The notes under the pieces were generated by a model that did no database searches, was not told the DNA's origin, and saw nothing but the letters and a program-made list of their open reading frames with translations. Shown piece by piece: positions 24,551-51,955 of a stretch of 64,000 nucleotides of DNA. The stretch covers positions 4,030,001 through 4,094,000 of the forward strand of contig OZ024743.1 in NCBI GenBank assembly GCA_964016885.1, given 5' to 3'. Position numbers and translations under genes: made by a program. How positions within the stretch are numbered: position 1 is the first letter of the stretch; each line of letters starts with the position of its first letter. The DNA comes from Eledone cirrhosa. Lineage: Eukaryota.

Positions 24551-24720
24551 CATGGCGGTGAATTAGCAGTATCGGTAGAATGTCGGACATGTCGAGCATA
24601 GTTACGTCCCTTTACAATCTGAGTTCAACTTTGCCTTTCATCCTTACGGGGTCGATAAAATAAAATACCAGTAATGTACTGGGTAAATGCTGGCCTTGTG
24701 CCTAAAATAGAAACAATTGT
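24551..24720 (+). mobile_element. SINE-1 copy
   Basis: Body and tail as in the other copies, with a small internal deletion. Confidence 0.85.
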
Positions 24721-25418
24721 TAACTCATTGCCTAAATACGGTATGACTTGCCCTTTGCGATTGTTTCATAATTGTTGCATCGAAAGATTTACAAATTAAT
24801 ATAGAATGGGTTACTTACTGAACAGCAATTGTACACATTCTAAATCTAAAAGTACACTGATACCCAACGAGATAGCTTCTAAGCAATCATATGATTTCTT
24901 AAAAACAGCAATCAAATGTCTATTAAATAGCACTCTGCTGTCTTAAATGGGGACAAAATGTTCGACAAGAATTGACTTTTAATTACAACTCTGACCGATC
25001 AGGGTTGACCTGTTGCTAAACATCAGCAACAATCGCAGAGTCATCTCGAAGTAGATATAACATTTATAAACCTGATCTCCAAACATTCTACCATCTGTTA
25101 TCTCTTTATCTACCTGCATTTTCAAAACGATGAAAATATAATTAACAATATTGTTGTGGTTGATTAGTCTCAGGTTAAACATCATTGAGCAACTATATCA
25201 TGAAAGACATTTTAAATATGACCGTTCCGTATTTTACGAGTATCCAAAACTTCATTATTCAATATATCCTTTCTAGTTTAACATTGTGAAGTTTAGTTCA
25301 GAGATTTGATTGCGTTTTGTATCAAGTAAATAATATTTAGTTCTGCCCATGTTATAATCAGTATCTCTACTCATTGGATGAATAGAACTGCAATGGACCA
25401 TAAATAAATAAGTATTAT

Positions 25419-25682
25419 TTACGGGGTCGATAAAATAAAGTACCAGTAATGCACTGGGTAATTGCTGGCCTTGTGCCTAAAGTAGAAACAATTATAATTA
25501 ATAATTGTTTCTACTTTTGGCACAAGGCCATCAATTACCCAGTGCATTACTGGTACTTTATTTTATCGACTCCGTAAGGATGAAAGGCAAAGTTAACCTC
25601 GGCGGGATTTTAACTCAGATCGTAAAGGGACGTAACTATGCTGGAAAGCATGGCGTCCGACCCTCTACCGATACTGCCAATC
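25419..25682. mobile_element. Tail-to-tail SINE-1 pair (truncated + copy, full - copy)
   Basis: 25419-25497 is the reverse complement of 25499-25577. Confidence 0.9.
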
Positions 25683-26407
25683 CAAATATTTACTCATTAC
25701 ATATCGGATAATCGTTTTAATAACGCATGTTGATGAAAGCTAATATTAGCTACTTCATCGATCTTATATATAAATATTAACTGATAACATAGGCGCAATG
25801 CCTCCCATTTCGAGTAGGGCTTAATTGACTCCAGTACTTGAATGTAAAGTTATTCAATCGAGTTCCGAAGAATGAAAAGCAATATTGATGTAGGCGGAAT
25901 TTGAATGTAGAGTTGAAACACATATCACAACATATTTGGTCTCACAATATACTTTATCTACTTTATATCTGAATAATAACAATCATATTTAACTCTGTTA
26001 CGAGGGCACTGGTTACGAATGCATACAGATGATCAAATGGAGCTCAAGTCTTGAATGCTATTCAATGTATTTATTGATCAGGAAAGGATAAATCGTAAAA
26101 TCGACTGCGATACTGCTTGAAATCAGAACATGTTTATAAAAGAAACAAGTTCTTAAATTTTATGTGAGAGTAGAATAATCGGCTATTCAAACTGGTAGCT
26201 TGCAAATAAGTGTCAACCTCAACGTGATTTTAAATCATAGCATAGAGAGACCTAAATAAATACAAATAATTTTATGGAATACATTTAAGATTCAGCCACC
26301 AACCGTCATTAAATTCTATTAAACAATTTCTATTTATTGTATCTATGATCCATCTTTATACTATTAACAATAATACCAATAATAACATTACTACTACTAA
26401 TAATACT

Positions 26408-26621
26408 AGTTTCTACTCTAGGCACAAGGCCAGCAATTTGATTGGGCGGCAAACGCTGATTAAATCGACCCCAGTGCGTTACGGGTACTTTATTTTATCG
26501 ACCACATAAGGATGAAAGGCAAAGCTAACCCTGGCGGAATTTAAACTCAAACCGTAAAGGGCCGTAACTCTATGTTGCGAAATATTGTGTCCGACGCTCT
26601 ACCGATACAGCAAATCGACCG

Positions 26622-26622
<1 letters not shown>
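26408..26622 (-). mobile_element. SINE-1 copy at the left edge of the retrotransposon array
   Basis: Reverse-complement SINE-1, followed by (TAC)n at 26623-26682 and a short (TAA)n. Confidence 0.8.
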
Positions 26623-26675
<53 letters not shown>

Positions 26676-26692
26676 CACTACTAATAATAATA

Positions 26693-29600
26693 CTTTCTTT
26701 ATTAACCACGAGGGTTTACATAAAGTAGACATTAAGGACAGTACAGGACAAACAAGACGGTACAAATTGGCATTTCTGCGTGTAAAAAACAAAAACAGAG
26801 GATGTAACAAAAAAAAATAACAATGAAAAATTCCCCAATACGGGGGAGACTTCTGAGGGACATTCGTGGAGAAAGCCCATTAAAAAGCCACAGTGACCCT
26901 AACCACCAGGACAAGTGCCCTCTCCCAGTTTTCCACCTTTAATTTACAGACACATACTCAGAGTAAGCCCATTCACTCGGGCCATTCTTGATCTCTCACC
27001 CATCTTTCAGCAAAATGCTGGGAAGAGAGCACTTCCCTCTCTACCCTGATTTTCCTTTTCCACAAGTCAGCAATGCTCGGACACTGGACGAGTGCGTGCA
27101 GGACGGTTTCGTCGCCCTGCGCGCACCTCGGACATGCTCGGCTGACGGCACCTCCATGCCTGTAGAGTTTATCTCGAACTGGCAAAGCTCCTCGGTAGCA
27201 CTGCCAGGCCGGGGATTTATGGAAGTTGTCCATAGGCCCCGGCCCGAAAGTTCTTCCGAAGAGATTGGCTAGTTGATTTTCGTCGACGCCTAGAGTTTCT
27301 CCAAGTACGTCGTCGCTCTTCCCCTCCACTAATCCTCTATAGAACGCCAAGGTGGAGTTTCCACCTATCACATTGCCCGATTGGTCGAGGGCTGTGAGCG
27401 CCTGAAGACATTCCAGTCTCCAAGCGCTCCCTCTCGGTCTTCGCTTGACCCAGGACTGCAGCTTCGTCAAGGAGACGAGCTGGGGAAAGACGTGTCTAGC
27501 AAATGGAGACCACAGCTGATCACCGTCGAGGAAGAGGTGGAGATGTCGTAGCCTGAGCGCGTGTCTGCGCATCATCAGCCACGGCATGCCCAGCCCTCCA
27601 CGTAGCGGGTGTTGACAGCAGATGGAAGGCCTGACCATCGGAGCGCGTCCCTTCCGCAAAAAGCGAAAGAGCAAATGCTCCAGCGCAGTCAGGCGCGGAT
27701 TATGACAAGGTACGACGGTCAGGCGGTAGTAGATGACGGACGCCATGTACGCGTTAGCCACCTCCGCTCGATCTTTCAGGGATAGCTTCCTCTCCGCCCA
27801 TTTCTGGGTGAGAGAAGCCACCCTGCTCGTCACCTCGTCCCAGTTTTTGTCCGTCTGGAGGTCCGGACCGAACCAGACCCCGAGCAATTTAACCGGTCCG
27901 TCCGTCCAGCGTCCGACGACGCTGTTGGACGGCATGGACCAGCCTCTCCAGGTGCTGAGCTGGAGGCCCTCTGACTTTTCCTGGATGATCATTGCTCCTG
28001 TAATCGCTTCGTATTCTCTTAGTGTAGTGCCGATCGCCTCGATGTGTTTGGCGTTCGACACCACTACAGTGACATCGTCCGCATGTGCTGACACGGATCT
28101 TCCGCATCCTAGTTCACACGGGACCCCCCTTAACGTCTCCATTTTGTGCAGTAATGGCTTCAGAGTCAATACGTGCAAGAGGGACAAGAGGGGACATCCT
28201 TGGCGGACCGAGCGCATGATGCTGAACGGTTCCGAAAGGTGACCGTTCACTCTCACCACAGAGCAGATGTCGTTGTGCATGGCAGCGATCCAGCCTCTGA
28301 AGACGGGCCCAAAGCCAGCCGCCCTCATGACTGCCGCTAGGTAACGATGGTCGACCCTATCGAAAGCTTTCGACTGATCTTAATTGATCAAGGATCCACC
28401 CGTGCCAGGTTCCCTAGCTACTCTCTCTACGATGTATCGCATGAGGTGGAGGTTGTCGTGGATGGATCTGTTGCGAATGGCGCATGTCTGCGCCCCTCCC
28501 ACCAGACACCCAACGACAAGCGCCAACCTCTTTGCTAGCACCTTGGCCAAAATCTTGAACTCTGTGTTTAGCAGAGTTATGGGCCTGAAATTATCTATGG
28601 TATCCCCCTTGTTCAAATCCTTTCTCAGCAGCTCCACAGCGCCTCGGCTCACAGAGCTGGGAATTCTTCCGTTCTGTTGCCAGTTGCAGTAGACGTCCGC
28701 CAAGAGGCCTCCGAACAAGTCTGGCATCTGTACGTAAAGTTCATAAGGCAGACCATCCAAACCAGGCGATTTACCCCTTGTGCAGCCAGTCATTGCCTCC
28801 CGTACTTAAGCGGCTGTTATCGGCTTTTCGCAACACTCCGCCTCAGTGGCCGTGAGCCGCGGCAGTCCGTCGAGGTAGACACTAAAGTCCATCCCTCGAT
28901 TCGTCCCGCCGCTGCCCCCGAACAGCTGGGCGAAGTGTCACTGGAAAGCTGCACATATTTGCCCGGGATCGAGTAGCATGCGCTCGTCGTGGTCCACCAA
29001 AGACCGGATCCTGGCTTCGTTGCCACGACGCGCCTCCACCACTCGGGCCCATTGAACGGCTTTCGCCCCCTCGTGTCGTCTGAGAGCACGCACCCTAGCT
29101 CTGACAACGCAGCCTTCGTGCTTCGCATTGAAGAATTGGTCAAGGGCCAATTTCGCCGCAAGTACGTCGGTCGCGATGCCTTTGCTAAGTGCCTCGTCTA
29201 ATTTTCTAACTAGTTCTCCCTCTGCTTTATTTTTCTCTATTGCTAAAGCCTTACTAAATCTAATAGACTCTATTCTACTCGCTCTTTTCAGAGCAAACCA
29301 CCACTTGTTGTTGACGATGGCCCCCGTCAACACCCTCTTAACTAGTTCGCTAATCCGGTCTCTGTAAGCCTTGCGCGCTGGTAAGGACGCGTTTAGCTTC
29401 CAGTAGCCGGGTCCTCGTCTATGAAGCCTATTTAAGTCAAGCACACAGATCACGAGTTTGTGGTCCGTGTAGCTGAGTATCTTGAATTGTGGACAGCCTA
29501 TGCTAGACCTATCTATTTCCCTACAAAATACTCTATCTAGATATGATCTGGATGACCCAATGAGATTTGTCCAAGTCCACATTGGCACATTCGGGAAATC

Positions 29601-32313
29601 CAATCGGTACCTGTCAGACAGTTCAAAACGCCTGAGCAGGTTGGTGAGGCTCTTGTACCCTCCTCCCCTATCCGCTAATCCCACACAGTCCTAGCGTGCA
29701 TCTAAGATCCCGTTCCAGTCGCCCACTAACACTAAAGAGCGGGACGTTCCAAGAAAGGTCTCCAGACGCCGGAAGAAATCAGTCCGCCCTGCTCCTCTCG
29801 AGGCATAGACGGCCACTAAGCCTGAAAGCTTGCCGTCTCCGCTGGTCACGTCCAGCACCACCAACTTACCTTCTGGGTCCAGGAAGATGGACCGTATAGC
29901 GAGATCCAAACCTCTCCGAAAAAGCACAGCAACTCCTCCCCCGATCCAGGACGGCTGGGAGATACGTACACATCGTAACCGCCGAAGATCGGTGCGAAGG
30001 CCCGTGCTTCGGAGATTCTGGTCTCGCTGATGGCCACTACATCTATGTTTAGTGACCTGAGGTCGTTGGGCAGGTGGCCCTGCTTCCATGACGACCCCAA
30101 GCCACGCGCATTTATGCTGCCTATTCTGAGTGAGGTCACGTTGAAATGGAGTGGAAAAGATGGGAAAGACCACTTACCTTACTTCTCGTAGAGGAAGGAT
30201 GGTTTCTCCATCCTTTTCACTGCTTGTGGCCTCCTCCGGAAGGATGTCCTTATAAATCCTCCTGGAGAGTGTTTGTCGGAAGTCTGCGATGTCTTTGGGG
30301 AATTTTTGTTTTAGTGTCGTGTACGTTTTCTGTGTGATGCGAGTGATTTGTATGTGTGGAGGTGGTGTGAATTTTGGGTTGTTGTGTCGTCTTTTTCTGT
30401 GATGCTGGTGTTGTGTTGGATGTAGTGTAATAATTGGTTGTTGTTTAAATTTAATGCTGTGTAGTGTGTATCGTTTTCGTTGTTTTGTTTTGTTTGCGTT
30501 TGTTGTGGGTTTGTTTCTGTTTCGCTTTTTGGTGACTTTTGTGGTGTTAGTGATGGTGGTGTTGGGGTTAATGATGGTGATGGTGTTGGTGTTTGTGATG
30601 GTGGGGTTGGTGATGCTGGTGTGGATGGTGGCATATCTGTCCTAACTGTTTTGTTTGATAGTTTATTTGTTTCCCTCTGTATTTTGTTTTTGGATGGGGA
30701 GGGAAGAGAATTTTTTCTTTTTTGGTCTCTTTTTTTCTGATACCTTTTCCCACTCCTTGTCGTCCCAATCTGTCTCCAGTTGTGATAGGCCGGGGAGTGG
30801 AAAATGCTCCACAGGCGTTGGTTTTGGTTGTGGCGTGGTGGATGATGTAGGCGCTGGTGCTAGTTCTGGCGCGTTGGGTGGTAGTGGCGTTGGTTTTGCT
30901 ACTGTTTCTGGTGTTGTTGCTGTTACAGTTGCTTCTGTTGTTGCTGCTACAGTTGTTGCTGCCATCTCTGCTGCTGGTGGTGCTGATGGTTGAGTCACTG
31001 GGGTGGGTAAGAGAGATGGCCTCAACCTTTTAGCCTGAGGGCAGAAAGCCCTTAAGTGGGTTCCTTCACCACAAACGACACACCTAGGCCTTCTGCCCTC
31101 GACGATTACGGTGAGGTGGCTGCCGTCAGTGAGGTCTATTACCTCAGGGATCTCCTCAATGCTTTTTTGGTCCGCTTGGATCAGGAGCTCCATCCCAGAT
31201 CCGGACCAGTTCTCCTGCTTTTGTTTCGCTATTTCTATTATCTTGGTGTTGGCTTCGATGCCGGCGAGGACGGCAGCCATTAGCCAGGGAATTTCGATGG
31301 CCGGTGGAACGTGGGTCACCCTGGTCTTTACGAGTCTCTGTCCACAATAGCTTGGGACGGGTGTGAAGTCGTCACTTCTTAATGGGGCCATGGAGTGTTC
31401 TCTGGCCTCCTGTGGTGTTTCAAAGAACACGTCCACGGTTCCATATTTCTGCCCACGTCTGATGTGGGGTTATTTTTCCCACACATGTCCCAAAGCTTTT
31501 TGGATTTGGGACTCGGATGCCCGTTCCACTCGGCGCGATTTTATGCTAATCGTCCGATAAGACACGGTGGATCGGCGCCGATGCTCCATTTTATTAGGTG
31601 GAGTGGGGTGGGGGGTGGGGGTGAGGCTGACCCTGTATCCATCTTTCTTTACCATTTTTTTGGCTTCTTCTAATTCCTCCTGAGTTACCTGGAATGCTTC
31701 GCACTGTTTTGCTACTCTGGCAAAAATCAGGATGGTTTTCTTAATTTCATTGTTGCTGTTATCGTTATTTTTGTTATTGTTAATTTTAGTTTCAGTTGTG
31801 GTGGTGGTGGCGTCAGTGGTGTTCGGTGTGGAAGAGTTCATTTTGGTTGAATTCATTTCGATATCACGAGGTAATTTATTTTTTTCTTTTGTTTCTGTTG
31901 TCGCTGTGGTGGTGGTGGGGGTGGCGGCTTTAACACCTGCAGTCATTGGTAATGGCGGGAAATGAATGTCTGCCTGAGACAAATTTAAAATATTGCTACT
32001 GCTTATATTTTTAGTGTTGGCAAACGTAGTAATATTTACAATGGTGGTGTCGGTGTGAGGTGTTAGTTTGTGAGGAAGGTGTGACTCTGAGTCGTCCATG
32101 TTTTTCAAAGAAAAATCTTTGTTTGATAATTATAAAAGCTTAAAATTTTGGGCTCAAGGCCCCAATCTTTATGAGTGTCCTTTTCAGTAATCAATGTATG
32201 TGCACTTATATACAGTTAACAATAAAAATTTTCAATAAATGGTAATTTTAAACAACTGAAAATAACAAACATTTACGGAGCTCACGATAATACGATTTAC
32301 TACGTAGGTCGCC
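26693..32313 (-). mobile_element. Full-length decayed Tx1/L1-clade retrotransposon, family A (copy 1)
   Basis: ORF1 pieces 31470-32108 and 30663-31436 (CX2CX4HX4C), ORF1b (~30174-30720), and fragmented APE-RT ORF2 (~26950-30139). 5' end GGCGACCTACGTAG; 3' end AATAAAGAAA(TTA)n. Confidence 0.95.
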
Positions 32314-32335
32314 AATAATAATAATAATGATAATA

Positions 32336-35300
32336 ATTTCATTTATTGGCCACAAGGGCCGACATATAGGGGACAATACAAAAGACTGGGACAGTGGGGT
32401 TTTACAGAAAAATCGAGTAAACAATATGAATAACAATAACAAAGTAACAATAACAAAGTAACAATAAAGTAACAATAAAATTACAAAAAGAAAAAATTCC
32501 CCAATCGGGCGGATGACCACCGAGGGTTCGCTCAGGTACCCCACCAATCCTGAACGACCCGATGCTACAAGAGCACCCTGGAAGGGCACCCCCCTCTCCT
32601 CAAATTTACCTACCTACAGCCGCATGACCAGAGTAGGCCCACTCACACAGGCCATTCTCGCCACATTCACCCACCTTTCAGCAAATGTACGGGGGGGGGG
32701 GGGCATTTATCTCTCCACCCTCACCTTCCTTTCCAAGTGCAACTTGAAAAAGTTGATGAGGGATTGGCCGAAGAGAAAAGTGTCTGTCTTCAGTCCTTTT
32801 AACCTGGTCCACCATATCACCTCTTTCGCAACTGCCACCAGAGAGAGGAAAATTTCCTGCTCTTCCTGACCTAAGGAAGGCGGTGGATCGATCTCCATTA
32901 TGGACTCGGCCGATAGCCGGATTCGTTTCACACGCGACAGTAGCTGTTCGACATAACTCCACAATTCAGTAATGCACGGACATTGGACAAGTGCGTGCAG
33001 AACGGTTTCGTCATTCTGTGCGCATCTTGGGCAGGTCCGTCTGACAGCACTTCCGTGCCTGTAGAGTTTATCTAGAACCGACAGTGCCCCCCCCCCGGTA
33101 GCACTGCCAAGCGAGGGATTTTTGGAAATTATCCATCGTCCTCGGCTCGAAAGTCCTCCGGTACAGACTGATTAGTTCGACTTCGTTGACTCCCAGAGCC
33201 TCTCCGAGTGCGTCGTCGCACTTTGCCACCACTAATCCTCTATAGAACTCGAGAGTGGAAGTTCCACTGACTGCATTGCCCGCCTGGTAGAGGGCAGTGA
33301 GTGCCTGGCAACATTCCAGATGCCAGTCACCCAGTCTCGGTCTCTTCTTGACCCAGGACTGCAGCTCAGTCAAAGAAACGAGCTGCGGAAAGGCCCGTCT
33401 GACAAACGGCGACCACACCTGTTCACCGTTTAGGCAGAATATCTTGAGATGCCGCAGCCTCAGCGCGTGCCTTCGCATCATTAGCCACGGCATGCCCAGC
33501 CCTCCACGTAGAGGATGCTGGCAGCAGATGGACCGCCTCACCAGCGGAACCTGACCCCTCCACAAGAATTTGAAGAGGAGCCGCTCCAAGATGGCGAGGC
33601 GCGAACGGGGGCAAGGGACGACGGTCAGACGGTAGTAGATGACGGACGCGATGCATGCGTTCGCCACCTCCGCCGGACCTTTCAGTGATAGCTTCATCTC
33701 AGCCCATTTCTGGGTGAGACTGGCTACCCTGCCCGTCACCTCGTCCAAATTCTTATCCACCTGGAGGGCTGGCCCGAACCAAACCCCTAGCAACTTTACC
33801 GGTCCGTCCGTCCAGCGCCTAACGACGCTGTTGGACGGCATGGACTTGTCTCTCCAGGTGCCGAGTTGCAAGCCCACCGACTTTTCTGGGTTAAGTTTTG
33901 CTCTCGTCAACCTTTCATATTCCTCCAATAAGTTGCCGACCACCTCGATTTCTGAGGTGTCCGACACCATCACGGTGATGTCGTCCGCATAAGCCGACAC
34001 AGCCTTTCCGCGTCCCGGTTCGAGCGGGATGCCCTGCAACAACTCCAGCTTCCGCAGTAAAGGCTCGAGAGTCAATACGTACAGAAGGGACGAGAGAGGG
34101 CACCCTTGACGGACCGATCGGGAGACCTGAAACGGTTCCGAGAGGTGGCCAATAATTTTGACAATCGAGCAGGTGCCGCTGTGCATTGCAGCAATCCAGC
34201 TTCTGAAGACGGGGCCGAAGCCAGCCGCCATGAGGACAGCCTCCAGGTACCGATGGTCGACCCTATCGAATGCTTTCCATTGATCTAAATTGATCAGAGC
34301 CCCACCGAAGCCAGGTTTACACCGTACCCTCTCTATGATGTATCGCATTAGGTGGAGGTTGTCGTATATGGACCTGGTTGGGATTGCGCAAGTTTGCGCC
34401 TCCCCAACCAAATCCCCGACAACAAGCGCCAACCACTTCGCTAACACCCTGGTCAAAATCTTAAACTCTGTGTTGAGCAGAGTTATGGGCCTGAAATTGT
34501 CTAATGCGTCCCTCTTGTTCTCATCTTTCCTTATCAGCATCACTACGCCCCGGCTCACAGAACTGGGAATACTCCCGTTTTGCTCCCAGTTGCAGTAGAG
34601 GGCTTAGAGGAGATTGGAGAACAAGTCTTGCATATTTACGTAAAGTTCGTAGGGCAGACTATCCATACCGGGTGACTTGCGCCTTATGCAGCCGACAACG
34701 GCATCATGAATCTCGGCTGAAGTAATTGGCCTTTCGCAGCGCCCAGCGTCAGCCGTCGAGAAATGCGGCAAGCCATCGAGGTAGGGACTGAAATCCTCCA
34801 CCGTCTCTGACCCGCCACTTCCCCCGAACAACCGAGAAAAATGTTGGCGAAAGGCCTCACACATCCGCTTGGAATCGCTCAGCTCGTGTCCGTCTCGGTC
34901 CGTCAAAGACCGAATCGTGGTTTTATTACCACGCTACGTCTCTGCTACGCGGGCCCATCGAACAGCTTTGGTTCCCTCTTTCTCAGCGCACGCACCTTAG
35001 CTCTGACAATGCAACCTTCGTGTTTCGCATTGAAGAAATGTTCTAATGCCATTCTCGCCGCTAGCACGTCAGTTGCAATGCCACTACCAATAGCCTCGTC
35101 TAACTTATCTACCAACTCCCCCTCCTTTCTATTTTTCTCTAACGCTACTTCTTTGCTAAACTCTATCAACATTACTCTAATCTCTCTTTTGAGAGCCCCC
35201 CACCATCGACTCCCCCTGTCAACTTTTTCTTAACTAAATAGTTGACCTGGTCCCTGTAAGCCTTACGTGCCGGAAATGTTTAGCTTCTAGTAAGCCGGTC

Positions 35301-37882
35301 CTAACCTACGCGTTTTATCTAGGTCGACCATACAAATCACAAACTTGTGATCTGAATAGGCGACCGTTTCAAAACGTGGACAGCTTACACTATTTCTGTC
35401 TATTTTCTTAATGAATATCCTGTCTATATACGATCTAGATGACCCTATGCGGTTAGTCCATGTCCACACTGACGCATTAGGGAAATCTAGTCGGTACCTG
35501 TCAGACAGTTGGAACTGGTTGATCAGGTTCTTGAGGCTTTTGCACCTCCGCTCCTATCGGATACTCCCACACAGTCCCAGCGTGCGTCTAAGATGCCGTT
35601 CCAGTCCCCGCTAACAGTAAAGGGCGAGACGTACCCAGAAAGGTTTCCAGGCGTCTAAAGAAGTCCGGCCACCAGTCTAAAGGCACCACCTTCGTTATTG
35701 TTCACGTCTAGGACCACCAACTTCCCGTCCGGGTCCCGGAAGATCGACCTTACCTCGAGATCCAGGCCTTTCATAAACAGCACTGCCACTCCGCCTCCCA
35801 TTCCCGGCCGGCTAACAGATGCAAAGATCTGATAGTCGTCGAAAATGGGGGCTAGTGCGCGCGTGTCGGAAATCCTGGTCTCGCTGACGGCAATTACATC
35901 CATTTCTAGAGACTTGAGGTCGTTGAGCAGGTGACACTGCTTCCAGGACGATCCCAGGCCTCGAACATTTAAACTTCCTACTCTTAATACGGCCATGTTG
36001 GCACGTTAAAAAGAGAGAGAGAAAAGGTTTACTTACCTTCCGGGCTCTTGTGAAGGTCGGGTGGTTCGACCTCCATAGTTGGTGGGGTTTCTTTTGGGAA
36101 CCCCTTTAAAAGTCTTGAAGTGAGTTTTACGTTCGGGGTTCCCACGTCCAGAGGAAAGCTGCCTCGTATTTCTTTGTATAAATCGAGCGACATTCGCACC
36201 AGAAACAAATTTTCCGGCACGCGAAATGTGTTCGATTTAAAAAATTACCCCTCTTTTTGAATATTTTCACTTCGTGCAACGAGGGACATTAGTTCTTTGT
36301 TGGCCCTCCTGACGAGCACGAAGTTTTGTATGTTTTGTTGGTGTGATTTTATTTGTTTGCGTGGCTGTGGTGGTGATGGTTTTGGTGGTGTTGTTTCGGT
36401 TGTGTCTGTGTTTGTTGTGAGTGCGGTGTCTGTGGTTTCAGATGTTTGTGTGTATATTTGTTCTTGCGTCTGTTTAGGTTGTTTGCGTTTGGGGGATTCT
36501 GGTGATGGTGATAGTGGTGTTGATGTTGGTGTTATTGGAGAGATGTTTGCGTGGGTGGTGTCTGCGTTTTTTTATTGTAGGTGATTTTGTGCTTTGTTGA
36601 GTTTATTTTGCTTTTTGTGTTTCCTTTTTTGTATTTTGGGGGATTTGGGTTTTCCCTCATCTTCACTACTGGTAGATGTAAGTGTGTCTGTGTGTGTGTT
36701 TATGGTTTTATTGGTGTGTGTATTTTAGAGGGATGGGGGAATTTGACAGCTTTCCTCGTTTCCACCCTGGGTGGTCAATGTTGGTGGTGGTCTTTTATTG
36801 GTGTTGTTGTTAGTGGTTTTACCGGTGCTGGTGTTGGTTGTGGTCCTCGCCCCGGCGTCGGCAGCAGTGGAGCCTTTCGACCCCTTGTATCTTTCAGCAG
36901 TTGAGGGCAGAAGGCTCGAAAATGGGTTTTTTCTCCACAAACAAAACAATGCGGCCTTTTAGCCTTCGGTCATAATGTGAATGACCGTCCCATTCTGACG
37001 GCGGATGTGGTCCGGGATTGTCTTCACATTCTCGGGCCTGATCTGGAGCAGGATCTTCAGGTCAACCCCGGACCAGTCCTCTCTGGCCGTTCTGGTCACT
37101 TCTTTCGGGATGGTATCTGTCCCCTCCACAATGATACATCCCAGAAGCCACCACATGTCAAGGGATTCTGGGAGTGCCGAGTTAGGTTGGCCCAGGTTTG
37201 CTCTTGCTTGATGAGTTTCCATGCCTGGGTCAACTTTTCATCTTTGTTTGAGAGGTCCATGTTGTTCCATGTGTTCTTCTTGTTGTCGTTGGGGGTGTTG
37301 TTGTCATTGTCGTTGTTCTTGTTGTGTTGTTGTTATCACTGTCGCTGTTATCATTGTTGTCTCTGGTGCCACCGTTGTTCTCGGTGCAGTTGGTATTGTT
37401 GCTGTTGGTGTTGTCGCTGTTTGTTTTCATGTTAGTGGTGTTGATATTGTTGTTGCATTTGTCATTTTTTTTTGTTATCTGTATTTTCGTTGTCGCTGTT
37501 ACTGTCATTATTTTCAAAATTAGAGTTCTCATTGGTATCATTGGTGTCTTTGTTTACATTGTTTGTGGTGGTGTTTGTGTTATCAATCTCTGTTAATTTC
37601 GCCGTAGCGCTTCTCTCAACTTCTACGTCGTTGTCGCACGATAGCAGACATATCGCTGGGGGGCGTGGCTCAGCCATGTTTTTTTTTGTATTTTTTCTCG
37701 ATAATTTTGTAAAAAAGTTCAAATATTTGGGCCAAAAGGCGCAAATATTATTCTTTCCCTTTCACACGGCAAAGTCCAAGGGCTTGTATGACTTACACAA
37801 CAACAAACAATTCAATAAATCAGTTTTGATAGGCAAATAAGTGAACTTACGGGAGCGAGCAAAAAGACGTCCGTTCAGACTC
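32336..37882 (-). mobile_element. Near full-length decayed Tx1/L1-clade retrotransposon, family B
   Basis: APE start MAVLRVGSLNVRGL (35996), RT 33068-34558 (RQGCPLS, YADD), ORF1 fragments with CFVCGEKTHFRAFC. Bounded by (TAA)n on both sides. Confidence 0.95.
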
Positions 37883-38265: not shown

Positions 38266-38719
38266 TATGTTGTTTTATCTCTAAACTCTCTCAAAATGTT
38301 TAGTTTAAACGATGTCAAATCTAAACTATAATATAATAATAATAATTGTTTCTGCTTTTGGCACGGGGCCAGCAATTGTCCTGGTGTGTTGCTGGTGCTT
38401 TGTTTTGTCGGCCCAGTAAGAATGAAAGGAAAAATAAAAATAATAATGATAAGCAAGTCGAAAAATTATAGAACAGAACACAGACAGAAGCAAACGCAAC
38501 AACAAACACACATTTCAAAAGTTTTGAACACAAGAACCCCTACTTCCCTTAGCACCAGCAGCAACAACAACACTAGTAACCGATGTTACTGGCCTTGAAA
38601 AACGAAAGACGCAAAGGAAAAAAACAAACAAACAAAAAAAACTAAGTCAGACATCCAACCATTACAATAAAACTTATGTTTATTTTTTAAAGTTTTTGTC
38701 TATTTATTTGTTTATTTAT

Positions 38720-42293: not shown

Positions 42294-42295
<2 letters not shown>
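38720..42295 (+). mobile_element. Near full-length decayed R4/Dong-like RLE retrotransposon (Dong family B)
   Basis: Single broken ORF 38846-42219: N-terminal WTKELN motif, NWKSPGPDG, NYRPITC, GIFQGDSLSPLLF, LFMDDLKL, CRIC...ETV, PDLVV...DVACP RLE motif. (TAA)n tail. The 5' boundary is approximate. Confidence 0.9.
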
Positions 42296-42334
<39 letters not shown>

Positions 42335-42336
<2 letters not shown>

Positions 42337-44864
42337 TTTCTTTATTAACCACAAGGGTTTACATAAAGTAGACATTAAGGACAGTGCAGGACAATGCAGG
42401 ACGGTACAAATGGGCATTTCTGCGTGTAAAAAAACAAAAACAGAGGATGTAACAAAAATAACAATGAAGTACAGCCAGGTTGGATGAGAAACGGGGCAAG
42501 TGAGAAAGGGTCACTTACCTTGATCGTGTGATGTAGAGACAGTAGTCATGTGTGTTTCCAAGAGGATGTCAGTGTATATCGTCTTGGTAACCGATGCTCT
42601 GAAGTCTCCAACTGCGTTGGGGAATTTTTGTTTTAAAAGTTTTTACTGTTGACAGCTAGTCATGGGTGTTTCCAAGAGGATGTCAGTGTATATTCTCTTG
42701 GTAACCGACCCTCTGAAGTCTCCAACTGCGTTAGGGAATTTTTGTTTTAAAAGATTGTACTGTTCTATTTTGATATCAATGATGCTTATGTTTTTCGGGA
42801 GAGTTCTTGGTGTTGGTGGGCTGTAGTAGTACGTTTCTGTGATGTCTGTGTGCTGCTTTATAAGTTCTATGAGTTCTTTATTTGCCATGTTTATGGCTGT
42901 GTACTTTTGGGCTGGAGGGGTGATTTTGTTGCTGTTTTCTTCTTGTTGCTGTTGGGTGTGTGTGTTTTGTTGTGTTTGCGATGTTGGTGTTTTTCGCGAT
43001 GCTGGTGGTGGTGTGGTTGTTGTTGGCGGTGGTGCTAGTGGTGGTGATGGTGATGGTGATGGTGGTGGTGTTGCTGCAAGTCTCCTTGCAGCATTTACCC
43101 CTCTTTGTATGCCTTCGGTTTTGGAGGGTGAAGCTAAGCGTTTTTTTTTCTTTTTTGTGGCAGACCGTTTGCCATTTCACTCCAGCCTCCTACTCCATGT
43201 CGGATTCCGTGGCGTATGGGAGGGGTATGTGCTCCACGGCTGTTGGTGGTGGTAGTGGAGCCCTCTCCGGCGATTTTCTTGCTGGTGCAACTACTGCAAA
43301 TGTAGCTACTGGTGTTGCCGCTACTGATGATGCTGCTTTAGTTGTCCGTGGCCTTGGTACGGGTGCCATGGACGTTGCCCTCCTACTCACCGTGGAAGGG
43401 GCTTCTGCGTTTGTTACCTGCCCTGCTCTTGGTAGCAGTGGACAAGGCATTGGAATGAGAGCGGCCTTCTTCTAAGCTATCTTCTGCAGATAGGGCAAAA
43501 GGCCCTTAGGTGACCATTTGACCCACAGAGGTAACATTTTGGCCGTCTTCCTTCCACGCTTATAGGAAGTTGGAGTCCTTCCTCGAGGTCTATGATATCT
43601 GGGATAGCGTCGATACACTACTGGTCAGGTTGTATAATCATTTGCATGCCGATACCTGAGCAGATCTCACTCTCTCTCTATTTTCTCTACTTGCAGCATG
43701 GTCGTCTTGTCCTCGATTCCAGCAAGGACAGACGCAGCCAGCCATGGTATGGGCACGTCGGGTGGGACCTGTGTCACTTTGACCATCACAATTTACTGCC
43801 CGAAGTAGGAGAGCACCAAGACTATCTCCTCACTCTTTAGGGTTTCCAAAGAGTGAGACTTCGCTTCTTGGGATGTGGCGAAATGTACGTCTACTGTGGC
43901 GTACTTTCTGCCTCGGGTGATGTAGAATTTGCGTGCCCAGACGCACCCCAAGGCCTTTTGGATTTGTGCCTCCGTGGCTCTCTACACTTGATGTGACATT
44001 TTGCTTACGGTGCGGTAAGTCACCGTCCGTAGCTGCTGGTCCTTAAACAAATCGGGTGGAGGTTTTAGGGAAACTCTATTGGCGTTTCTTGTCACCATGG
44101 CCCTTGCGACTGCCATGTCCTCCCCTGTGACTAACACTGTTTCGATATTTCGGGCCACACCTGCAAAAGAATTGGTCTCTTTACAGTGGTACCACTATTG
44201 CTGCCGCTACTGGTCTTGCTGGTGGTGCTGAGATCGCTGTTACACGTATCGGTGTAATTGTTGTTGTTTTCGTTGATACTGTTGCTGTTGTTACTGTTAT
44301 TGTGGCTGTTGTTATTATTGTTGTTTTTGTTGATACTGTTCCTACTATTATTGTTGTTGTGGCTGTTATTATTGTCATTGTCGTTCTCTACCTTACCGCT
44401 GTTATTTTTGTTGTTGTTGTTGTTATTGATGGTGTTGGTGTTGGTGTTGTTGTTGGTGTTATTGTTGGTATTGTTTGTGTTAGGAATATTTGGTAATTTT
44501 AAATATGTAAAAATATCATTAAAAATGATATCGTTTCTCTTTTCCTTCGTAATATTTTCTTTTATATTTACCTTCGCTAGAATGCTGTCTTGTTGATATG
44601 TTGACAAAGTCTCACTCTCTATGTGTTGTCTGACAGGGCTCTCTCTCTCTCTTTCTTGTGTTATCTATGTTCAAAGAAATTCTTTTTACAAATAATATTT
44701 TTACATAATACGACACCCCGTAAAGGGGTGCCGTATTATTAATGTGTGAACCCCTATATTAGGATAGTCACTTCTTCTAAACCTTTATCAAGTTTAAAAC
44801 TTGAATAAAAGGCTTAGAACTGTTGAAAAAAACAGGAGGCGATGAGAAGCGTGGCTTCACCTTC
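42335..44864 (-). mobile_element. Chimeric ORF2-less Tx1 element: family C 5'UTR/ORF1/ORF1b joined to the last ~135 nt of the family A 3'UTR
   Basis: 42335-42468 matches the family A 3'UTR. 42469-44864 is a divergent ORF1 (RRPKCYLCGSNGHLRAFC) plus ORF1b and ~3 codons of ORF2. Bounded by (TAA)n. Confidence 0.85.
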
Positions 44865-45137
44865 AATAATAATAATAATAATATTAATAATAATGATTTC
44901 TTTATTAACCACAAGGGTTTACATAAAGTAGACATTAAGGACAGTGCAGGACAATGCAGGACGGTACAAATGGGCATTTCTGCGTGTAAAAAAACAGAGG
45001 TTGAAATAAAATAACAAAGAAAAATTCCCCAATAGGGGGGAGACTTCCAAGGGACATTTGTGGAGAAAGCCCATTAAAAGACCACAGTGGCCCTGACCAC
45101 CAGGGCAAGTGCCCTCTCCCAGTTTTCCACCTTTAAT

Positions 45138-48100
45138 TTACAGACACATACTCAGAGAAGGCCCATTCACTCGGGCCATACTTGCTTCTCTCACCCATCT
45201 TTCAACAAAATGCTGGGAAGAGAGCACTTCCCTCTCTACCCTGATTTTCCTTTTCAAATGAAATTTGAAAAAGTTAATCAGGGCATCACCGAAGAGGTAA
45301 GTGCTCGTTTCAGCCCTTTCAAACGTGTCCACCATACTATCTCTTTCGCCATGGCCACCAGACAGATAAAAACTGCCTGCCCTTCCAGGCTAAAGGAAGG
45401 GGGCGGGGCAATCCTCACGATGGACTCAGCTGATAGCTGGATCCGTCCTACACGTGACAGCAGGTGTTCGACATAAACCCACAAGTCAGCAATGCTCGGA
45501 CACTGGACGAGTGCGTGCAGGACGGTTTCGTCGCCCTGCGCGCATCTCGGACATGCCCGGCTGACGGCACCTCCATGCCTGTAGAGTTTATCCCGAACTG
45601 GCAAAGCTCCTCGGTAGCACTGCCGGGCCAGGGATTTCTGGAAGTTGTCCATAGGCCCCGGCCCGAAAGTCCTTCCGAAGAGATTGGCTAGTTGATTTTC
45701 GTCGACGCCTAGAGTTTCTCCAAGTACGTCGTCGCTCTTCCCCTCCACTAATCCCCTATAGAACGCCAAGGTGGAGTTTCCACCGATCACATTGCCCGAT
45801 TGGTCGAGGGCTGTGAGCGCCTGAAGACATTCCAGTCTCCAAGCGCTCCCTCTCGGTCTTCGCTTGACCCAGGACTGCAGCTCAGTCAAGGAGACGAGCT
45901 GGGGAAAAACGTGTCTTGCAAACGGCGACCACACCTGCTCACCGTCGAGGAAGAGGTGGAGATGTCGTAGCCTGAGCGCGTGTCTGCGCATCATCAGCCA
46001 CGGCATGCCCAGCCCTCCACGTAGCGGGTGTTGACAGCAGATGGACCGCCTGACCATCGGAGCGCGTCCCTTCCACAAGAAGCGAAAGAGCAAACGCTCC
46101 AGCGCAGTCAGGCGGGGCTTAGGACAAGGTACGACGTTCAGGCGGTAGTAGATGACGGATGCGATGTACGCATTCGCCACCTCCGCTCGACCTTTCAGGG
46201 ATAGCTTCCTCTCGGCCCATTTCTGGGTGAGAGAAGCCACCCTGCTCGTCACCTCGTCCCAGTTTTTGTCCGTCTGGAGGTCTGGACCGAACCAGACCCC
46301 TAGAAATTTAACCGGTCCGTCCGTCCAGCGCCCGACGACGGTGTTGGACGGCATGGACCTGCCTCTCCAGGTGCCGAGCTGCAGGCCCACTGACTTTTCC
46401 TGGTTGATCATTGCTCCTGTCACCGCTTCGTATTCTCTTAGTGTAGTGCCGATCGCCTCGATGTGTTTGGCGTTCGACACCACTACGGTGACATCGTCGG
46501 CATATGCTGACACGGATCTTCCGCATCCTAGTTCGCGCGGGACCCCCCTCAACGTCTCCAGTTTGTGCAGTAATGGCTCGAGAGTCAATACGTACAATAG
46601 GGACGAGAGGGGACATCCTTGGCGGACCGAGCGCATGATGTTGACCGGTTCCGAAAAGTGACCGTTCACTCTCACTACAGAGCAGATGTCGCTGTGCATG
46701 GCAGCGATCCAGCCTCTGAAGACGGGCCCAAAGCCAGCCGCCCTCAGGACTGCCGCTAGGTAACGATGGTCGACCCTATCGAAGGCTTTCGATTGATCTA
46801 AATTGATCAAAGACCCACCCTTGCCAGGTTCCCTAGCTACCCTCTCTACGATGTATCGCATGAGGTGGAGGTTGTCGTGGATGGATCTGTCGGGAATGGC
46901 GCATGTCTGTGCCTCTCCCACCAGACCACCAACGACAAGCGCCAACCTCTTTGCTAGCACCTTGGCCAAAATCTTGAACTCTGTGTTTAGCAGAGTTATG
47001 GGCCTAAAATTATCTATGTTATCCCCCTTGTTCGGATCCTTTCTCAGCAGCGCCACCGCTCCTCGGCTCACAGAGCTGGGAATTCTCCCGTTCTGTTGCC
47101 AGTTGCAGTAGACGTCCGCCAAGAGGCCTCCGAACAAGTTTGGCATTTGTACGTAAAGTTCATAGGGCAGACCATCCAAACCAGGCGATTTACCCCTTGT
47201 GCAACTAGTCATTGCATCCCGTACTTCAGCGGTTGTTATCGGCTTTTCGCAACACTCCGCCTCAGTGGCCGAAAGCCGCAGCAGTCCGTCGAGGTAGACA
47301 CTAAAGTCCATCCCTCGATCCGGCCCGCCACTGCCCCCGAACAGTTGTGCGAAGTGTCGCTGAAAAGCTTCACACATTTGCCCGGGATCGAGTAGCATGC
47401 GCCCGTCGTGGTCCACCAAAGACCGGATCCTGGCTTTGTTGCCACGACGCGCCTCCGCCACTCGGGCCCATTGAACGGCTTTCGTCCCCTCGTGTCTGAG
47501 AGCACGCACCCTAGCTCTGACAACGCAGCCTTCGTGCTTTGCATTGAAGAATTGGTCAAGGGCCAATTTCGCCGCAAGTACGTCGGTCGCGATGCCTTTG
47601 CTAAGCGCCTCATCTAATTTTCTAACTAATTCTCCCTCTGCTCTATTTTTCTCTATTGCTAAAGTCTTACTAAACCTAATGGACTCTATTCTAATTGCTC
47701 TTTTCAGAGCAAACCACCACTTGTTGTTGACGATGGCCCCCGTCAACGCCCGCTTAACTAGTTCGCTAATCCGGTCTCTGTAGGCCTTGCGCGCTGGTAA
47801 GGACGCGTTTAACTTCCAGTAGCCGGGTCCTCGTCTATGAAGCCTATCTAAGTCAAGCACACAGATCACGAATTTGTGGTCCGTGTAGCTGACTATCTTG
47901 AATTGTGGACAGCCTATGCTAGACCTATCTATTTCCCTACAAAATACTCTATCTAGATATGATCTGGATGACCCTATGCGATTTGTCCAAGTCCACATTG
48001 GTACATTCGGGAAATCCATTCGGTACCTGTCAGACAGTTCAAAACGTCTGAGCAGGTTGGTGAGACTCTTGCACCCTCCTTCCCTATCCACTAATCCCAC

Positions 48101-48556
48101 ACAATCCCAGCGTGCATCTAAGATCCCGTTCCAGTCGCCCACTAACACTAAAGAGCGGGACGTTCCAAGAAAGGTCTCCAGACGTCGGAAGAAATCAGGC
48201 CGCCCTGCTCCTGTCGGGGCATAGACGGCCACTAACCTGAAAGCTTGCCCGTCTCCGCTGGTCACGTCCAGCACCACCAACTTACCTTCTGGGTCCAGGA
48301 AGATGGCCCGTATGGCAAGATCCAAACCTCTCCGAAAAAGCACAGCAACTCCTCCCCCCGATCCCGGACGGCTGTGAGATGCGTACACATCGTAGCCGCC
48401 GAAGATCGGTGCGAAAGCCTGTGCTTCGGAGATTCTGGTCTCGCTGATGGCCACTACATCTATGTTTAGTGACCTGAGGTCGTTGAGCAGGTGGCCCTGC
48501 TTCCATGACGACCCCAAGCCACGCGCATTTATGCTGCCTATTCTGAGTGAGGTCAT
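45138..48556 (-). CDS. ORF2 polyprotein: AP endonuclease, reverse transcriptase and CCHC domain (1-nt frameshift near 45308)
   Basis: SINARG, SET, YAP, GDWN, YLDR and YTDH (APE); KSPGLDG, FRPITLLN, KAFDRVDH, RQGCPLS and YADD (RT); CPRC...H...C. The C-terminus continues in 45138-45335, as in the copy ending at 61807. Confidence 0.92.
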
Positions 48557-48590
48557 GCTGAAAAGGAGTGGAAAAGATGGGAAAGACCAC

Positions 48591-49178
48591 TTACCTTACT
48601 TCTCGTAGGGGAAGGACGGCTTTTCCATCCTTTTCACTGCTTGTGGCCTCCTCAGGAAGGATGTCCTTATAAATCCTCCTGGAGAGTGCTTGTCGGAAGT
48701 CTCCGATGTCTTTGGGGAATTTTTGTTTTAGTGTCATGTACGTTTTCTGTGTGATGCGAGTGATTTGTATGTGTGGAGGTGGTGTGAATTTTGGGGTTGT
48801 TGTGTAGTCTTTTTCTGTGATGCTGGTGTTGTGTTGGATGTAGTGTAATAATTGCTTGTTGTTCAAATTTAATGCTGTGTAGTGTGTATCGTTTTGGTTG
48901 TTTTGTTTTGTTTGCGTTTGTTGTGGGTTTGTTTCTGTTTCGCATTTTGGTGACTTTTGTGGTGTAGGTGATGGTGGTGCTGGGGATAATGATGGTGATG
49001 GTGTTGGTGTTTGGGTTGATGGGGTTGGTGATGCTGGTGTGGATGGTGGCGTATCTGTCCTAAATTTTTTGTTTCTTAGTTTATTTGTTTCCCTCTGTAT
49101 TTTGTTTTTGGAGGGGGAAGGAAGAGAATTTTTTCTTTTTTTTTTTTCCGGATATCGTTTCCCACTCCTCGTCGTCAC
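48591..49178 (-). CDS. ORF1b: conserved third ORF in the +1 frame relative to ORF1 (probably a frameshift extension of ORF1)
   Basis: 195 open codons with no ATG at the start. Its C-terminal domain is homologous to 42643-42888 and 36029-36330 of other families. Confidence 0.7.
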   Translation of the reverse strand: MTTRSGKRYPEKKKRKNSLPSPSKNKIQRETNKLRNKKFRTDTPPSTPASPTPSTQTPTPSPSLSPAPPSPTPQKSPKCETETNPQQTQTKQNNQNDTHYTALNLNNKQLLHYIQHNTSITEKDYTTTPKFTPPPHIQITRITQKTYMTLKQKFPKDIGDFRQALSRRIYKDILPEEATSSEKDGKAVLPLREVR

Positions 49179-50553
49179 AATCTGTCTCCAGTTGTGATAG
49201 GCCGGGGAGTGGAAAATCCTCCACAGTCGTTAGTTTTGGTTGTGGTGTGGTGGATGGTGTAGGCGCTGGTGCTAGTTCTGAAGCGTTGGGTGGTGGTGGT
49301 GTTGGTTTTGCTGGTGGTGGTAGTGGTGTTGGTTTTGCTACTGTTGCTGGGGTTGTTGCTGTTATAGTTGCTTCTGTTGTTGCTGCTACAGTTGTTCCTG
49401 CCATCTCTGCTACTGGTGGTGTTGATGGTTGTGTCACTGGGGTGGGTAGGAGAGGCGGCCTCAACCTTTTAGCCTGAGGGCAGAAAGCCCTTAGGTGGGT
49501 TCCTTCATCACAAACGACACACCTAGCTCTTCTGCCCTCGACAATTACCGTGAGGTGGCTGCCGTCAGTGAGGTCTATTACCTCTGGGATCTCCTCAATG
49601 CTTTTTTGGTCCGCTTGGATCAGGAGCTCCATCCCAGATCCGGACCAGTTTTCCTGCTTTTCTTTTGCTACTGCTATTATTTTCGTGTTGGCTTCGATGC
49701 CGGCGAGGACAGCCGCTATTAGCCAGGGAATTTCAATGGCCGGTGGAACGTGGGTCACCCTGATCTTTACGAGTCTCTGGCCACAATAGCTTGGGACGAG
49801 TGTGAGGTCGTCACTTTTTAATGGGGCCATGGAGTGTTCTCTAGCCTCCTCTGATGTTTCAAAGAACACATCCACGGTTCCATACTTTTGCCCACGTCTG
49901 ATGTGGGTTTTTCTTGCCCACACATGTCTCAAAGCTTTTTGGATTTGGGACTCGGATGCCCGTTCCACTCGGCGCGATTTTACATTTATTGTTCTATACG
50001 ACACGGTGCACAGGCGCCGATGCTCCATTTTATTAGGTGGGGGGGTGAGGCTGACCCTGTACCCATCTTTCTTTACCATTTGTTTGGCATTTTCTAAATC
50101 TTCTTGAGTTACCGTGAACGCTTCGAATTGTTTTGCTACGATGGCGAAACTGAGGGTCAGTTTTATAATGTCATTGTTGTTGCTATCGTTAATATTAATT
50201 TTATTTTCAGTTGTGGTGGTGGTGACGTCAGTCGTCTTTGGTGGGGAAGAGTCCATTTTGCTTGATTTCATTTCGACGTCACGAGTTAATTTATTTTTTT
50301 CTTCTTTTGTTTCTGTTGTCGCGGTGGTGGTGGTGGTTGTCGCGGTGGTGGTGGTGGTGGAGGGTTTAACACCTGCAGTCATTGGTAATGGCGGGAAATG
50401 AATGTCTGCCTGAGACAAATTTAAAATATTGCTACTGCTTATATTTTTTTTTGTGTTGGCAAACGTAGTAACATTTACAATGGTGGTGTCGGTGTGAGGT
50501 GTTATTTTGTGAGGAAGGCTTTCAGCTGCTTCGTGCAGAGGGGAATTAGCCAT
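49081..50553 (-). CDS. ORF1 protein (Thr/Asn-rich N-terminus, probable RNA-binding core, single CCHC zinc knuckle, Pro/Thr-rich tail)
   Basis: 490 aa open frame; CVVCDEGTHLRAFC is CX2CX4HX4C; lies upstream of the APE-RT ORF. Confidence 0.88.
   Translation of the reverse strand: MANSPLHEAAESLPHKITPHTDTTIVNVTTFANTKKNISSSNILNLSQADIHFPPLPMTAGVKPSTTTTTATTTTTTATTETKEEKNKLTRDVEMKSSKMDSSPPKTTDVTTTTTENKININDSNNNDIIKLTLSFAIVAKQFEAFTVTQEDLENAKQMVKKDGYRVSLTPPPNKMEHRRLCTVSYRTINVKSRRVERASESQIQKALRHVWARKTHIRRGQKYGTVDVFFETSEEAREHSMAPLKSDDLTLVPSYCGQRLVKIRVTHVPPAIEIPWLIAAVLAGIEANTKIIAVAKEKQENWSGSGMELLIQADQKSIEEIPEVIDLTDGSHLTVIVEGRRARCVVCDEGTHLRAFCPQAKRLRPPLLPTPVTQPSTPPVAEMAGTTVAATTEATITATTPATVAKPTPLPPPAKPTPPPPNASELAPAPTPSTTPQPKLTTVEDFPLPGLSQLETDCDDEEWETISGKKKKKKFSSFPLQKQNTEGNK

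Positions 50554-51954: not shown

Positions 51955-51955
<1 letters not shown>
50819..51955 (+). mobile_element. 5'-truncated R4/Dong-like element (Dong family A)
   Basis: ORF 50858-51811 with CRVC...H...C, RHD and RPD RLE motifs; near-identical to 56859-57989; (TAA)n tail. Confidence 0.95.

Follow-up and report, generated by a model that had tools for sequence, protein, structure and literature searches.

A hairpin common to the 3′ ends of Tx1 elements and an abundant SINE of Eledone cirrhosa points to a Tx1-lineage partner

Tx1 elements and SINE-1 in the window

We analysed a stretch of 64,000 nt from Eledone cirrhosa (assembly GCA_964016885.1, contig OZ024743.1, positions 4,030,001 to 4,094,000, forward strand), referred to below as the window. 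It contains long interspersed elements (LINEs) of the Tx1 clade and copies of a short interspersed element (SINE) that we call SINE-1, and a CUUGU-type loop on a stem of 3–4 bp terminates 7/7 Tx1 3′ ends and 12/12 SINE-1 copies. We consider it likely that SINE-1 took its 3′ end from a coleoid Tx1 lineage and that its partner is an element of this lineage.

From ∼26.4 kb to its end the microsatellite-rich window is a LINE array around TTA/TAA runs, with two types of LINE. Elements with two open reading frames (ORF1 and ORF2) lie on the − strand and form the families Tx1-A and Tx1-B; the other type, on the + strand, encodes a reverse transcriptase (RT) and is called RLE-type (restriction-like endonuclease) here. 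The Tx1 ORF2 contains the domains Exo_endo_phos, RVT_1 and zf-RVT with ORF1 upstream, as is usual for the Tx1 clade. Among named proteins, one of the octopod Argonauta hians comes nearest to the main ORF2 (70% identity across the RT region).

The Tx1-A element at 44865..50762 (−) is flanked by (TTA)n at both sides and has ORF1 at about 49081-50559, ORF2 at 45278-48556 (apurinic-type endonuclease (APE), RT and zf-RVT) and its 3′ hairpin at 44907-44919. A second near-full copy (26683..32313, −) is 92% identical to the first, another runs past the window edge (61496..64000, −; hairpin 61556-61568), and a 5′-truncated one lies at 5610..7223 (+); the Tx1-A copies are 90–95% alike. The Tx1-B element (32314..37882, −) has a degenerate ORF1 and ORF2, with 56–73% amino acid identity to the Tx1-A ORF2 by segment, and a B-related, internally deleted element occupies 57991..61495 (−; hairpin 58025-58037). 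Within this one window ATT repeats follow 7/7 Tx1 3′ ends and TTA repeats precede 5/5 intact Tx1 5′ ends, which indicates a target preference.

The seventh Tx1 end is a Tx1-A-type 3′ end at 42294..42468 (−; hairpin 42347-42359) that lies tail to tail with an RLE-type LINE, within the TAA run of the latter's tail. This 175-nt A-type end is joined straight to a divergent ORF1 (∼52% to A) with its own 5′ untranslated region (UTR), and ORF2 is missing; the whole segment (42294-44864, −) is possibly an ORF1-only non-autonomous element, or else a deletion.

SINE-1 consists of a tRNA-like head, a UCON3-like body and the hairpin tail. Box-like motifs (A/B-box) were read by eye in the head, in which ARAGORN and Rfam detected no tRNA. 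The body matches UCON3 domain rows (supplement of PMC7245038) by eye, without a scored alignment; we rejected a label as the 66-bp Meta domain, as the BivaMeta sequences compared, from the supplement of PMC4824008, are dissimilar. With its box-like head, short length, lack of an ORF, candidate target-site duplications (TSDs) and high copy number, SINE-1 has the features of a tRNA-derived SINE.

Short-form copies are found at 3568..3760 (+; 12-nt TSD starting ATTAT), 13099..13270 (+; with a TSD) and 17219..17414 (+). Two long-form copies, with ∼30 extra nt and a C-rich tract ahead of the hairpin, lie at 13503..13724 (−) and 26399..26622 (−). The latter is the copy with which, according to the preliminary description of this DNA, the array begins on its left; it is indeed there, with a (TAG)n run between it and Tx1-A. 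The remaining copies are one at 24555..24723 (+; 13-nt TSD starting ATTRT), a tail-to-tail pair of a truncated (+) and a full (−) copy at 25419..25688, two 5′-truncated copies arranged head to tail at 14973..15207 (+), an old truncated copy at 38332..38449 (−) and a 5′-truncated copy represented by its 3′ end only at 53923..53980 (+). TSD candidates of 12–13 nt with one mismatch were seen in an ATT-rich context in 3/7 copies examined and were weaker in the rest; they start with ATT(A/G)T. Five copies are 5′-truncated with intact 3′ ends. Such truncated copies with intact 3′ ends and TSDs are hallmarks of target-primed reverse transcription. A second tRNA-like SINE with another body and tail is inserted in (TA)n at 9160-9420 (+) and is without the terminal CUUGU hairpin.

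SINE-1 had been called abundant. We aligned restriction site-associated DNA (RAD) reads of the same species to one copy, the short form at 17219..17414. Of 12.5 million reads in one run and 12.8 million in another, 214,624 and 201,592 aligned, respectively (1.6–1.7%); in two other runs 135,841 and 186,061 contigs aligned to it. These figures are not copy numbers, and they bear out the abundance. Most SINE reads are 90–95% like the reference copy, so that the ages of SINE-1 and Tx1-A overlap. Many reads depart from the short reference at position 17370 into a ∼30-nt insert that ends C-rich just upstream of the hairpin, which is the long form. Joints at which the tail (17406) is followed by a head again are present in dozens of contigs, the top two in 78 and 75 contigs of one run. 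The earlier suggestion that tails seed new targets is thereby supported for insertions of SINE on SINE.

The 3′ ends of Tx1 and SINE-1 share a hairpin

The CTTGT hairpin of Tx1-B had been described at 32336-32362 (−), and both its position and its sequence proved right. On the − strand the Tx1-B end reads GGCC (32360-32357), CTTGT (32356-32352) and GGCC (32351-32348); this hairpin (32348..32360) has a predicted pair probability of 0.95–0.99. It is followed at 32314..32347 (−) by AATAAA, a short spacer and the (TTA)n tail, a run at 32314-32337 that also adjoins the 5′ end of the next Tx1-A. In the second Tx1-B copy (58033) a G-U pair replaces one G-C pair of the stem. The Tx1-A end, AACC-CTTGT-GGTT AATAAAGAAATC(ATT)n, was found as described, with loops at 42355, 44915 and 61564, while older copies have the variant loops CTTAT (7185, +) and CTCGT (26712, −). 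Over the seven ends, all with a 4-bp stem and followed by AATAAA and ATT repeats, the loop is CTTGT five times and CTCGT and CTTAT once each.

SINE-1 was said to end in GGC-CTTGT-GCC and (TTA)n. The hairpin is present in this form in 11/12 copies, and the copy at 38367 has a CCCGT loop; the tail, however, consists of only ∼1–4 degenerate ATT units and not of a long (TTA)n. In both kinds of element an A-rich spacer leads from the hairpin to a tail starting with ATT, and ...GAAA... is common to the spacers of SINE-1 and Tx1-A/B. The distance from the loop start to the first ATT run is 20–23 nt in the SINE and 19–22 nt in Tx1; it is kept because the SINE stem is one pair shorter but the spacer longer. 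The SINEs lack AATAAA and keep the hairpin, which argues against a role of the hairpin as part of a poly(A) signal only, and we rejected that reading.

The stem was examined for covariation in 16 hand-picked ends anchored on the loop. Both sides change in 4/5 stem pairs, 86% of the cells are paired as compared to 67% when shuffled and 30–46% in slid controls, and RNAalifold recovers the same stem. The ends have a conserved 3′ stem-loop with compensatory changes, as in stringent-type LINEs, on a short stem and in rows that are selected and related. A loop-anchored hairpin model built from the 16 rows retrieved 12/12 SINE tails and 7/7 Tx1 ends of the window within its top 22 hits, six of the retrieved ends being in the training set. 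In fold predictions the hairpin forms in 6/7 Tx1 ends (P at least 0.82) and is clearly predicted in five of 11 SINE copies (P 0.48–0.94).

A conserved hairpin also lies ∼155 nt from the start of the Tx1 5′ UTR, at 50576-50635, 32111-32170, ∼61330-61350 and ∼37730-37750 (all −). One Tx1-A copy has the form GGGC-CTTGT-GCCC there (50599..50611, −), with a C-tract before it and ATT repeats after it, and this is the best match to the SINE tail in the window; the homologous hairpins of the other families differ from it in the loop. Read-through of an array may have captured an old 3′ end here, or the match is due to chance.

Squid relatives of the Tx1 elements end in the same hairpin

Relatives were sought in prokaryotic genomes, which gave 46 loci, 39 of which are in one metagenome-assembled genome (MAG), CAXXMW01, labelled Arenicella and containing mis-binned animal contigs. 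The host of these contigs is most likely a squid, and most likely a loliginid, since they carry a SINE resembling Sepioth-SINE (see below); protein names gave no further indication of the host. At 40–45% ORF2 identity to the window Tx1 (about 41%), the elements end in GGC-CT[T/C/A]GT-GCC in 38/38 scorable loci out of the 39, scorable meaning that enough downstream sequence was available; the variable loop base is T, C or A in 20, 14 and 4 loci, respectively. The 38 loci represent ∼8 families from one genome. AATAAA follows ∼22 nt beyond the hairpin and a C-rich tract directly precedes it. The 3′ UTRs of squid and window Tx1 otherwise have one 18-nt motif in common. A 14-nt piece of the C-tract of the long SINE-1 form was found as an exact match before the hairpin in nine squid Tx1 copies, with 0 control matches. 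SINE-1 itself is absent among the matches in the squid contigs (best E 1.4), and Rfam gave no match in the window or in seven squid loci.

In a quick RT tree with SH-aLRT support only, the families of the window group with P0001 and with the protein from Argonauta (100). The sister of this clade is a 26-row clade with the squid elements (96), and the joint clade of 30 rows has a support of 100. Around the joint clade this tree has elements that adjoin U2, 5S and tRNA genes, as well as a protein bearing the name “transposon TX1”; the placement is provisional, in a tree without true L1 or curated Tx1 references and with unsettled deep forks.

The squid relatives (G001 contigs C3-C15 and C17-C19; L188-L224) form pure head-to-tail arrays without microsatellites between the units; in one contig the hairpin motif recurs 13 times, mostly about 6.4 kb apart. 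Such arrays are reminiscent of telomeric or self-targeting arrays. Several squid families have different 5′ ends and a nearly identical ORF2 and 3′ end. Contigs C2-C19 of the MAG amount to several hundred kb of animal repeat DNA, which includes a satellite of 2.19 kb (C2) and, in C16, a tandem unit of 8.16 kb that carries an ORF of long-terminal-repeat-type RT/integrase.

The search was extended to 87 distant Tx1-like loci, with 80 loci from JGI metagenomes among the matches listed, at 24–42% best-segment identity. The hairpin model gave 0 sense-strand hits in the 87 loci, some of which adjoin U2, 5S or tRNA genes. In 33 of the distant loci ORF2 is followed by an A8 run, which does not mark a true end in every case, and the hairpin was found in 0/33. 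Because it is missing from these loci, we regard the hairpin as a feature of this lineage and not of Tx1 in general. Distant elements in metagenome and MAG contigs were noted at U2 (L121, L109), 5S (L123, L132, L227, L229) and tRNA genes (L169), and those ending at 5S genes have poly(A) ends. No Tx1 relative was found in viral collections, and 107 exact 15-mer matches there were taken as chance.

A second SINE has the same loop

The squid contigs contain a second abundant SINE (29 matches). Compared by eye, it agrees over its length, including the tail, with the consensus sequences of Sepioth-SINE1 and -2A (supplement of PMC5786205). The tail of these Ceph-SINEs is annotated as “unknown3′” in that supplement (Kojima, 2018). 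In the squid contigs it has GAC-CTTGT-GTC, which is the same loop on a stem with a compensatory change from G-C to A-U. A second hairpin is predicted in this tail and a TTA repeat is missing, as in the Tx1 ends of the same contigs. Each of the two SINEs is thus built at its end like the Tx1 with which it resides. Sepioth-SINE2B has a different tail without the hairpin. SINE-1 and Sepioth-SINE1/2A differ in the head, and SINE-1 has the UCON3-like body; only the hairpin is common to them.

Two non-coding repeats of the squid contigs, X and Y, end in the same hairpin plus the second hairpin. They are headless, ∼290–400 nt long and GC-rich, and are chained head to tail (L234:17400-19000; L244:13100-13460; L248:3200-3450).

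The true partner might also be a LINE of another clade that has the hairpin too, be it shared or convergent. In favour of this, X is the best match of the Sepioth-SINE tail. The motif is also short, and the LINE screen covered the 3′-end types of the window. All protein-coding elements seen with this end, on the other hand, belong to one Tx1 clade, and the two RLE families of the window are without the hairpin. We therefore regard a partner from another clade as improbable.

Chance, folding and the choice of partner

CTTGT hairpins with at least three Watson-Crick pairs occur 24 times on the two strands of the window (128 kb): in 11 SINE tails, five Tx1 ends and eight other places. As the background is ∼6e-5 per position, chance is unlikely to put a hairpin at just this spacing before the tail. 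That the resemblance is a coincidence between short AT-rich ends would agree with the in-window alignment scores and with the eight other hairpins, one of them in a 5′ UTR. It is very hard to reconcile with the positional match, the conservation across species, the exact 14-nt match of the C-tract and the recurrence of the loop in a second SINE family, and we give it the least credence of the explanations considered.

A number of observations nevertheless weigh against a tail borrowed from Tx1. By plain sequence the SINE tail scores only 27–28 against the Tx1-A/B ends, and unrelated places reach 28–31 among 8,168 masked window tiles, the top tile (36) being the Tx1-A 5′ UTR hairpin; pairwise shuffling gave p values of 0.004–0.12 for the tail against these ends. 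The sequence match within the window is by itself weak and lies inside the chance tail. The stem has only 3–5 bp, one of the seven Tx1 ends is predicted to fold into another pairing, and in 6/11 SINE copies a competing pairing is preferred, with a hairpin P of at most 0.07. The rows used for covariation are related to one another and were picked for having the hairpin, and a single paired insertion best accounts for the A/B difference beside the loop; the number of independent covariation events is therefore ∼4. Sepioth-SINE tails do not match the Tx1 ends of the squid arrays significantly (p 0.04–0.93), scoring 24 against these and 40 against the unassigned repeat X, and one squid X variant has an A-C mismatch in the stem. 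SINE-1 is dispersed at AT-rich sites (5′ loose-end agreement 0.4–0.5), and the Tx1 copies seen are in microsatellites or pure arrays. One long SINE-1 copy gave p = 0.008 against an RLE-type end, in a gappy alignment, and the other seven SINE/RLE comparisons were not significant. Finally, the LINE comparison comprised four 3′-end types of the window, with CR1, RTE, L2 and other Tx1 families outside the screen.

The RLE-type LINEs were rejected as partners of SINE-1. Their ends have (TAA)n in four of the five examined, the fifth being without a tail, which is opposite in polarity to the (TTA)n of SINE-1 and Tx1, and the hairpin is absent from both families in the window. In the comparison of the SINE tail with the LINE ends, polarity and hairpin agree with Tx1, and the RLE type lacks both; the sequence score, as said, does not single Tx1 out.

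The tail could also be an old relic of Tx1 on a SINE that is now copied by a more relaxed LINE (Dong/R4, CR1 or RTE) needing a repeat tail only. The recently active insertions of Octopus vulgaris, 1,129 Dong-R4, 787 CR1 and 421 L1-Tx1 (PMC13282606, Table 1), would suit this, as would the much wider dispersal of SINE-1 relative to the Tx1 copies seen. Yet the short SINE form drops the C-tract and keeps the hairpin, no variant falls at 17379-17389 among the 40 read variants listed (126 further rows exist), and the polarity is opposite to that of the RLE-type LINEs. We rate a relic as slightly less probable still than a partner from another clade.

Within a Tx1 origin of the tail, SINE-1 might be driven directly by Tx1-A or Tx1-B themselves. 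They share with it the loop, the spacing of 19–23 nt, the ...GAAA... spacer and the (TTA)n polarity; SINE TSDs start with ATTAT, Tx1-A inserts in ATT runs, and the ages overlap. However, A and B carry an extra C-G pair beside the loop and have no C-rich tract directly upstream, which the long SINE and the squid-type Tx1 ends do have. We find direct driving by A or B rather unlikely. Judged from the end sequences, a sister Tx1 family that is not seen in the window and combines a GGC/GCC stem with a C-rich tract is the likelier direct partner, since these two traits of SINE-1 fit the squid-type end better than that of A or B.

The preliminary description held that these Tx1 elements mobilise SINE-1. 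What holds of this is the derivation of the tail from a Tx1 lineage with a conserved stem-loop, for which the squid relatives, the second SINE and the polarity speak; A and B as the driver do not fare as well, given the better fit of the squid-type end. The squid data support the borrowed tail much more strongly than the window data do. On this comparative evidence, the coleoid Tx1 lineage probably mobilises SINE-1 by recognising the stem-loop.

A possible route of SINE-1 mobilisation

In such a process SINE-1 would be transcribed by Pol III, and the Tx1 ORF2 protein would bind the hairpin loop of the SINE RNA. The Tx1 endonuclease would nick the (TAA)-strand of ATT-rich targets, the UUA tail of the RNA could then pair at the nick and prime reverse transcription, and new tails would in turn become targets, hence the head-to-tail arrays. 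In the L2 precedent from zebrafish both loop and stem are needed and the linker between endonuclease and RT binds (PMC4176376).

Other features of the window

RLE-type, RT-coding LINE copies with (TAA)n tails are found at 50827..58011 (+), and a second RLE family at ∼39133-42334. From their C-terminal region we take them to be Dong/R4-like. Tx1 and RLE-type LINEs occupy common TAA/TTA microsatellites in opposite orientations at 42294-42334, 57991-58011 and 50763-50820. At 53071-53480 (+) a 5′-UTR-like segment follows a TAA run; it has a 15-nt motif in common with the Tx1-B 5′ end and is oriented opposite to the other Tx1 starts. Further repeats are a 650-nt inverted pair in (CATA)n at 19283-19930 and 22460-23091, a 184-nt inverted repeat at 15284-15815 and a 33-nt minisatellite at 16580-16808.

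Discussion

Taken together, our comparison points to a probable tail-sharing partnership of SINEs and Tx1 across coleoids that would work like the stringent L2/CR1 pairs. As in UnaL2/UnaSINE, ZfL2 and the bivalve CORE- and V-SINEs with CR1/L2 (PMC4176376, PMC4824008), LINE and SINE have in common a short repeat tail and, ahead of it, a short 3′ hairpin whose loop is conserved and whose stem shows compensatory changes. Unlike in the stringent L2, CR1 and RTE pairs, the LINE is of the Tx1 clade (L1 group), the loop is CUYGU, the shared stretch is ∼25–40 nt, and the pair is known from sequence alone.

A SINE has been proposed to be mobilised by a Tx1-clade element before, namely SINEU by Tx1-Mar in crocodilians (Kojima, 2015; PMC4494074). 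There the two were linked because target and age agree, SINEU is poly(A)-tailed, and the account given reports no LINE with the SINEU-1 3′ end; the link described here is instead a structured 3′ end common to Tx1 and tRNA-type SINEs. L1-group 3′ ends common to SINEs are known for ZmSINE2/3 and LINE1-1_ZM (maize/sorghum) and for SINEX-3 and L1-1_CR (Chlamydomonas), with a hairpin showing compensatory changes in the ZmSINE2/3 case (Ohshima, 2013; PMC3747384). Those pairs are from plants and algae, and Table 1 of that paper, with 58 pairs stated, has no Tx1 and no mollusc pair. Kibi and Koshi (PMC4494074) are likewise APE-type Tx1 elements in simple repeats. Here the target is (TTA)n and the squid relatives form pure head-to-tail arrays; Kibi and Koshi are not in our RT tree. 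The texts covered, which also include PMC4758252, PMC10294476, PMC5804259, PMC3531059 and PMC5753468 in the parts used for comparison, describe no Tx1/SINE pair with a common 3′ hairpin, although Repbase, Dfam, Akasaki 2010 and Ohshima and Okada 1994, which lie outside this literature, may note one.

SINEs make up ∼12% of the Octopus vulgaris genome (PMC13282606). The relevant parts of PMC13282606 and PMC8967140 report abundant SINEs and L1-Tx1 families in octopus and name no partner LINE for the SINEs, and cephalopod SINE decay is discussed over >270 million years of evolution (PMC8967140). A wider reading, which we put forward tentatively and hold to be somewhat short of an even chance, is that a coleoid-wide, stringent-type Tx1 lineage of the L1 group has kept the CUYGU hairpin since the split of octopods and squids as an entry key for several unrelated non-autonomous RNAs, and that the head-to-tail arrays, those of the lineage itself and those of its passengers, are built by this one machinery. 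The passengers would include the octopod UCON3-type SINE, Sepioth-SINE1/2A and the headless X and Y repeats.

The Tx1 lineage is thus a candidate engine for the SINEs of octopus, and it offers an origin for the squid SINE tail listed as unknown. The 13-nt hairpin, with its natural variants of loop and stem, makes recognition directly testable. If the partnership is true, Tx1 would be one more clade employing a 3′ stem-loop. This would be relevant to the question, raised in PMC3747384, of whether the L1 group was strict in its RNA recognition from the beginning.

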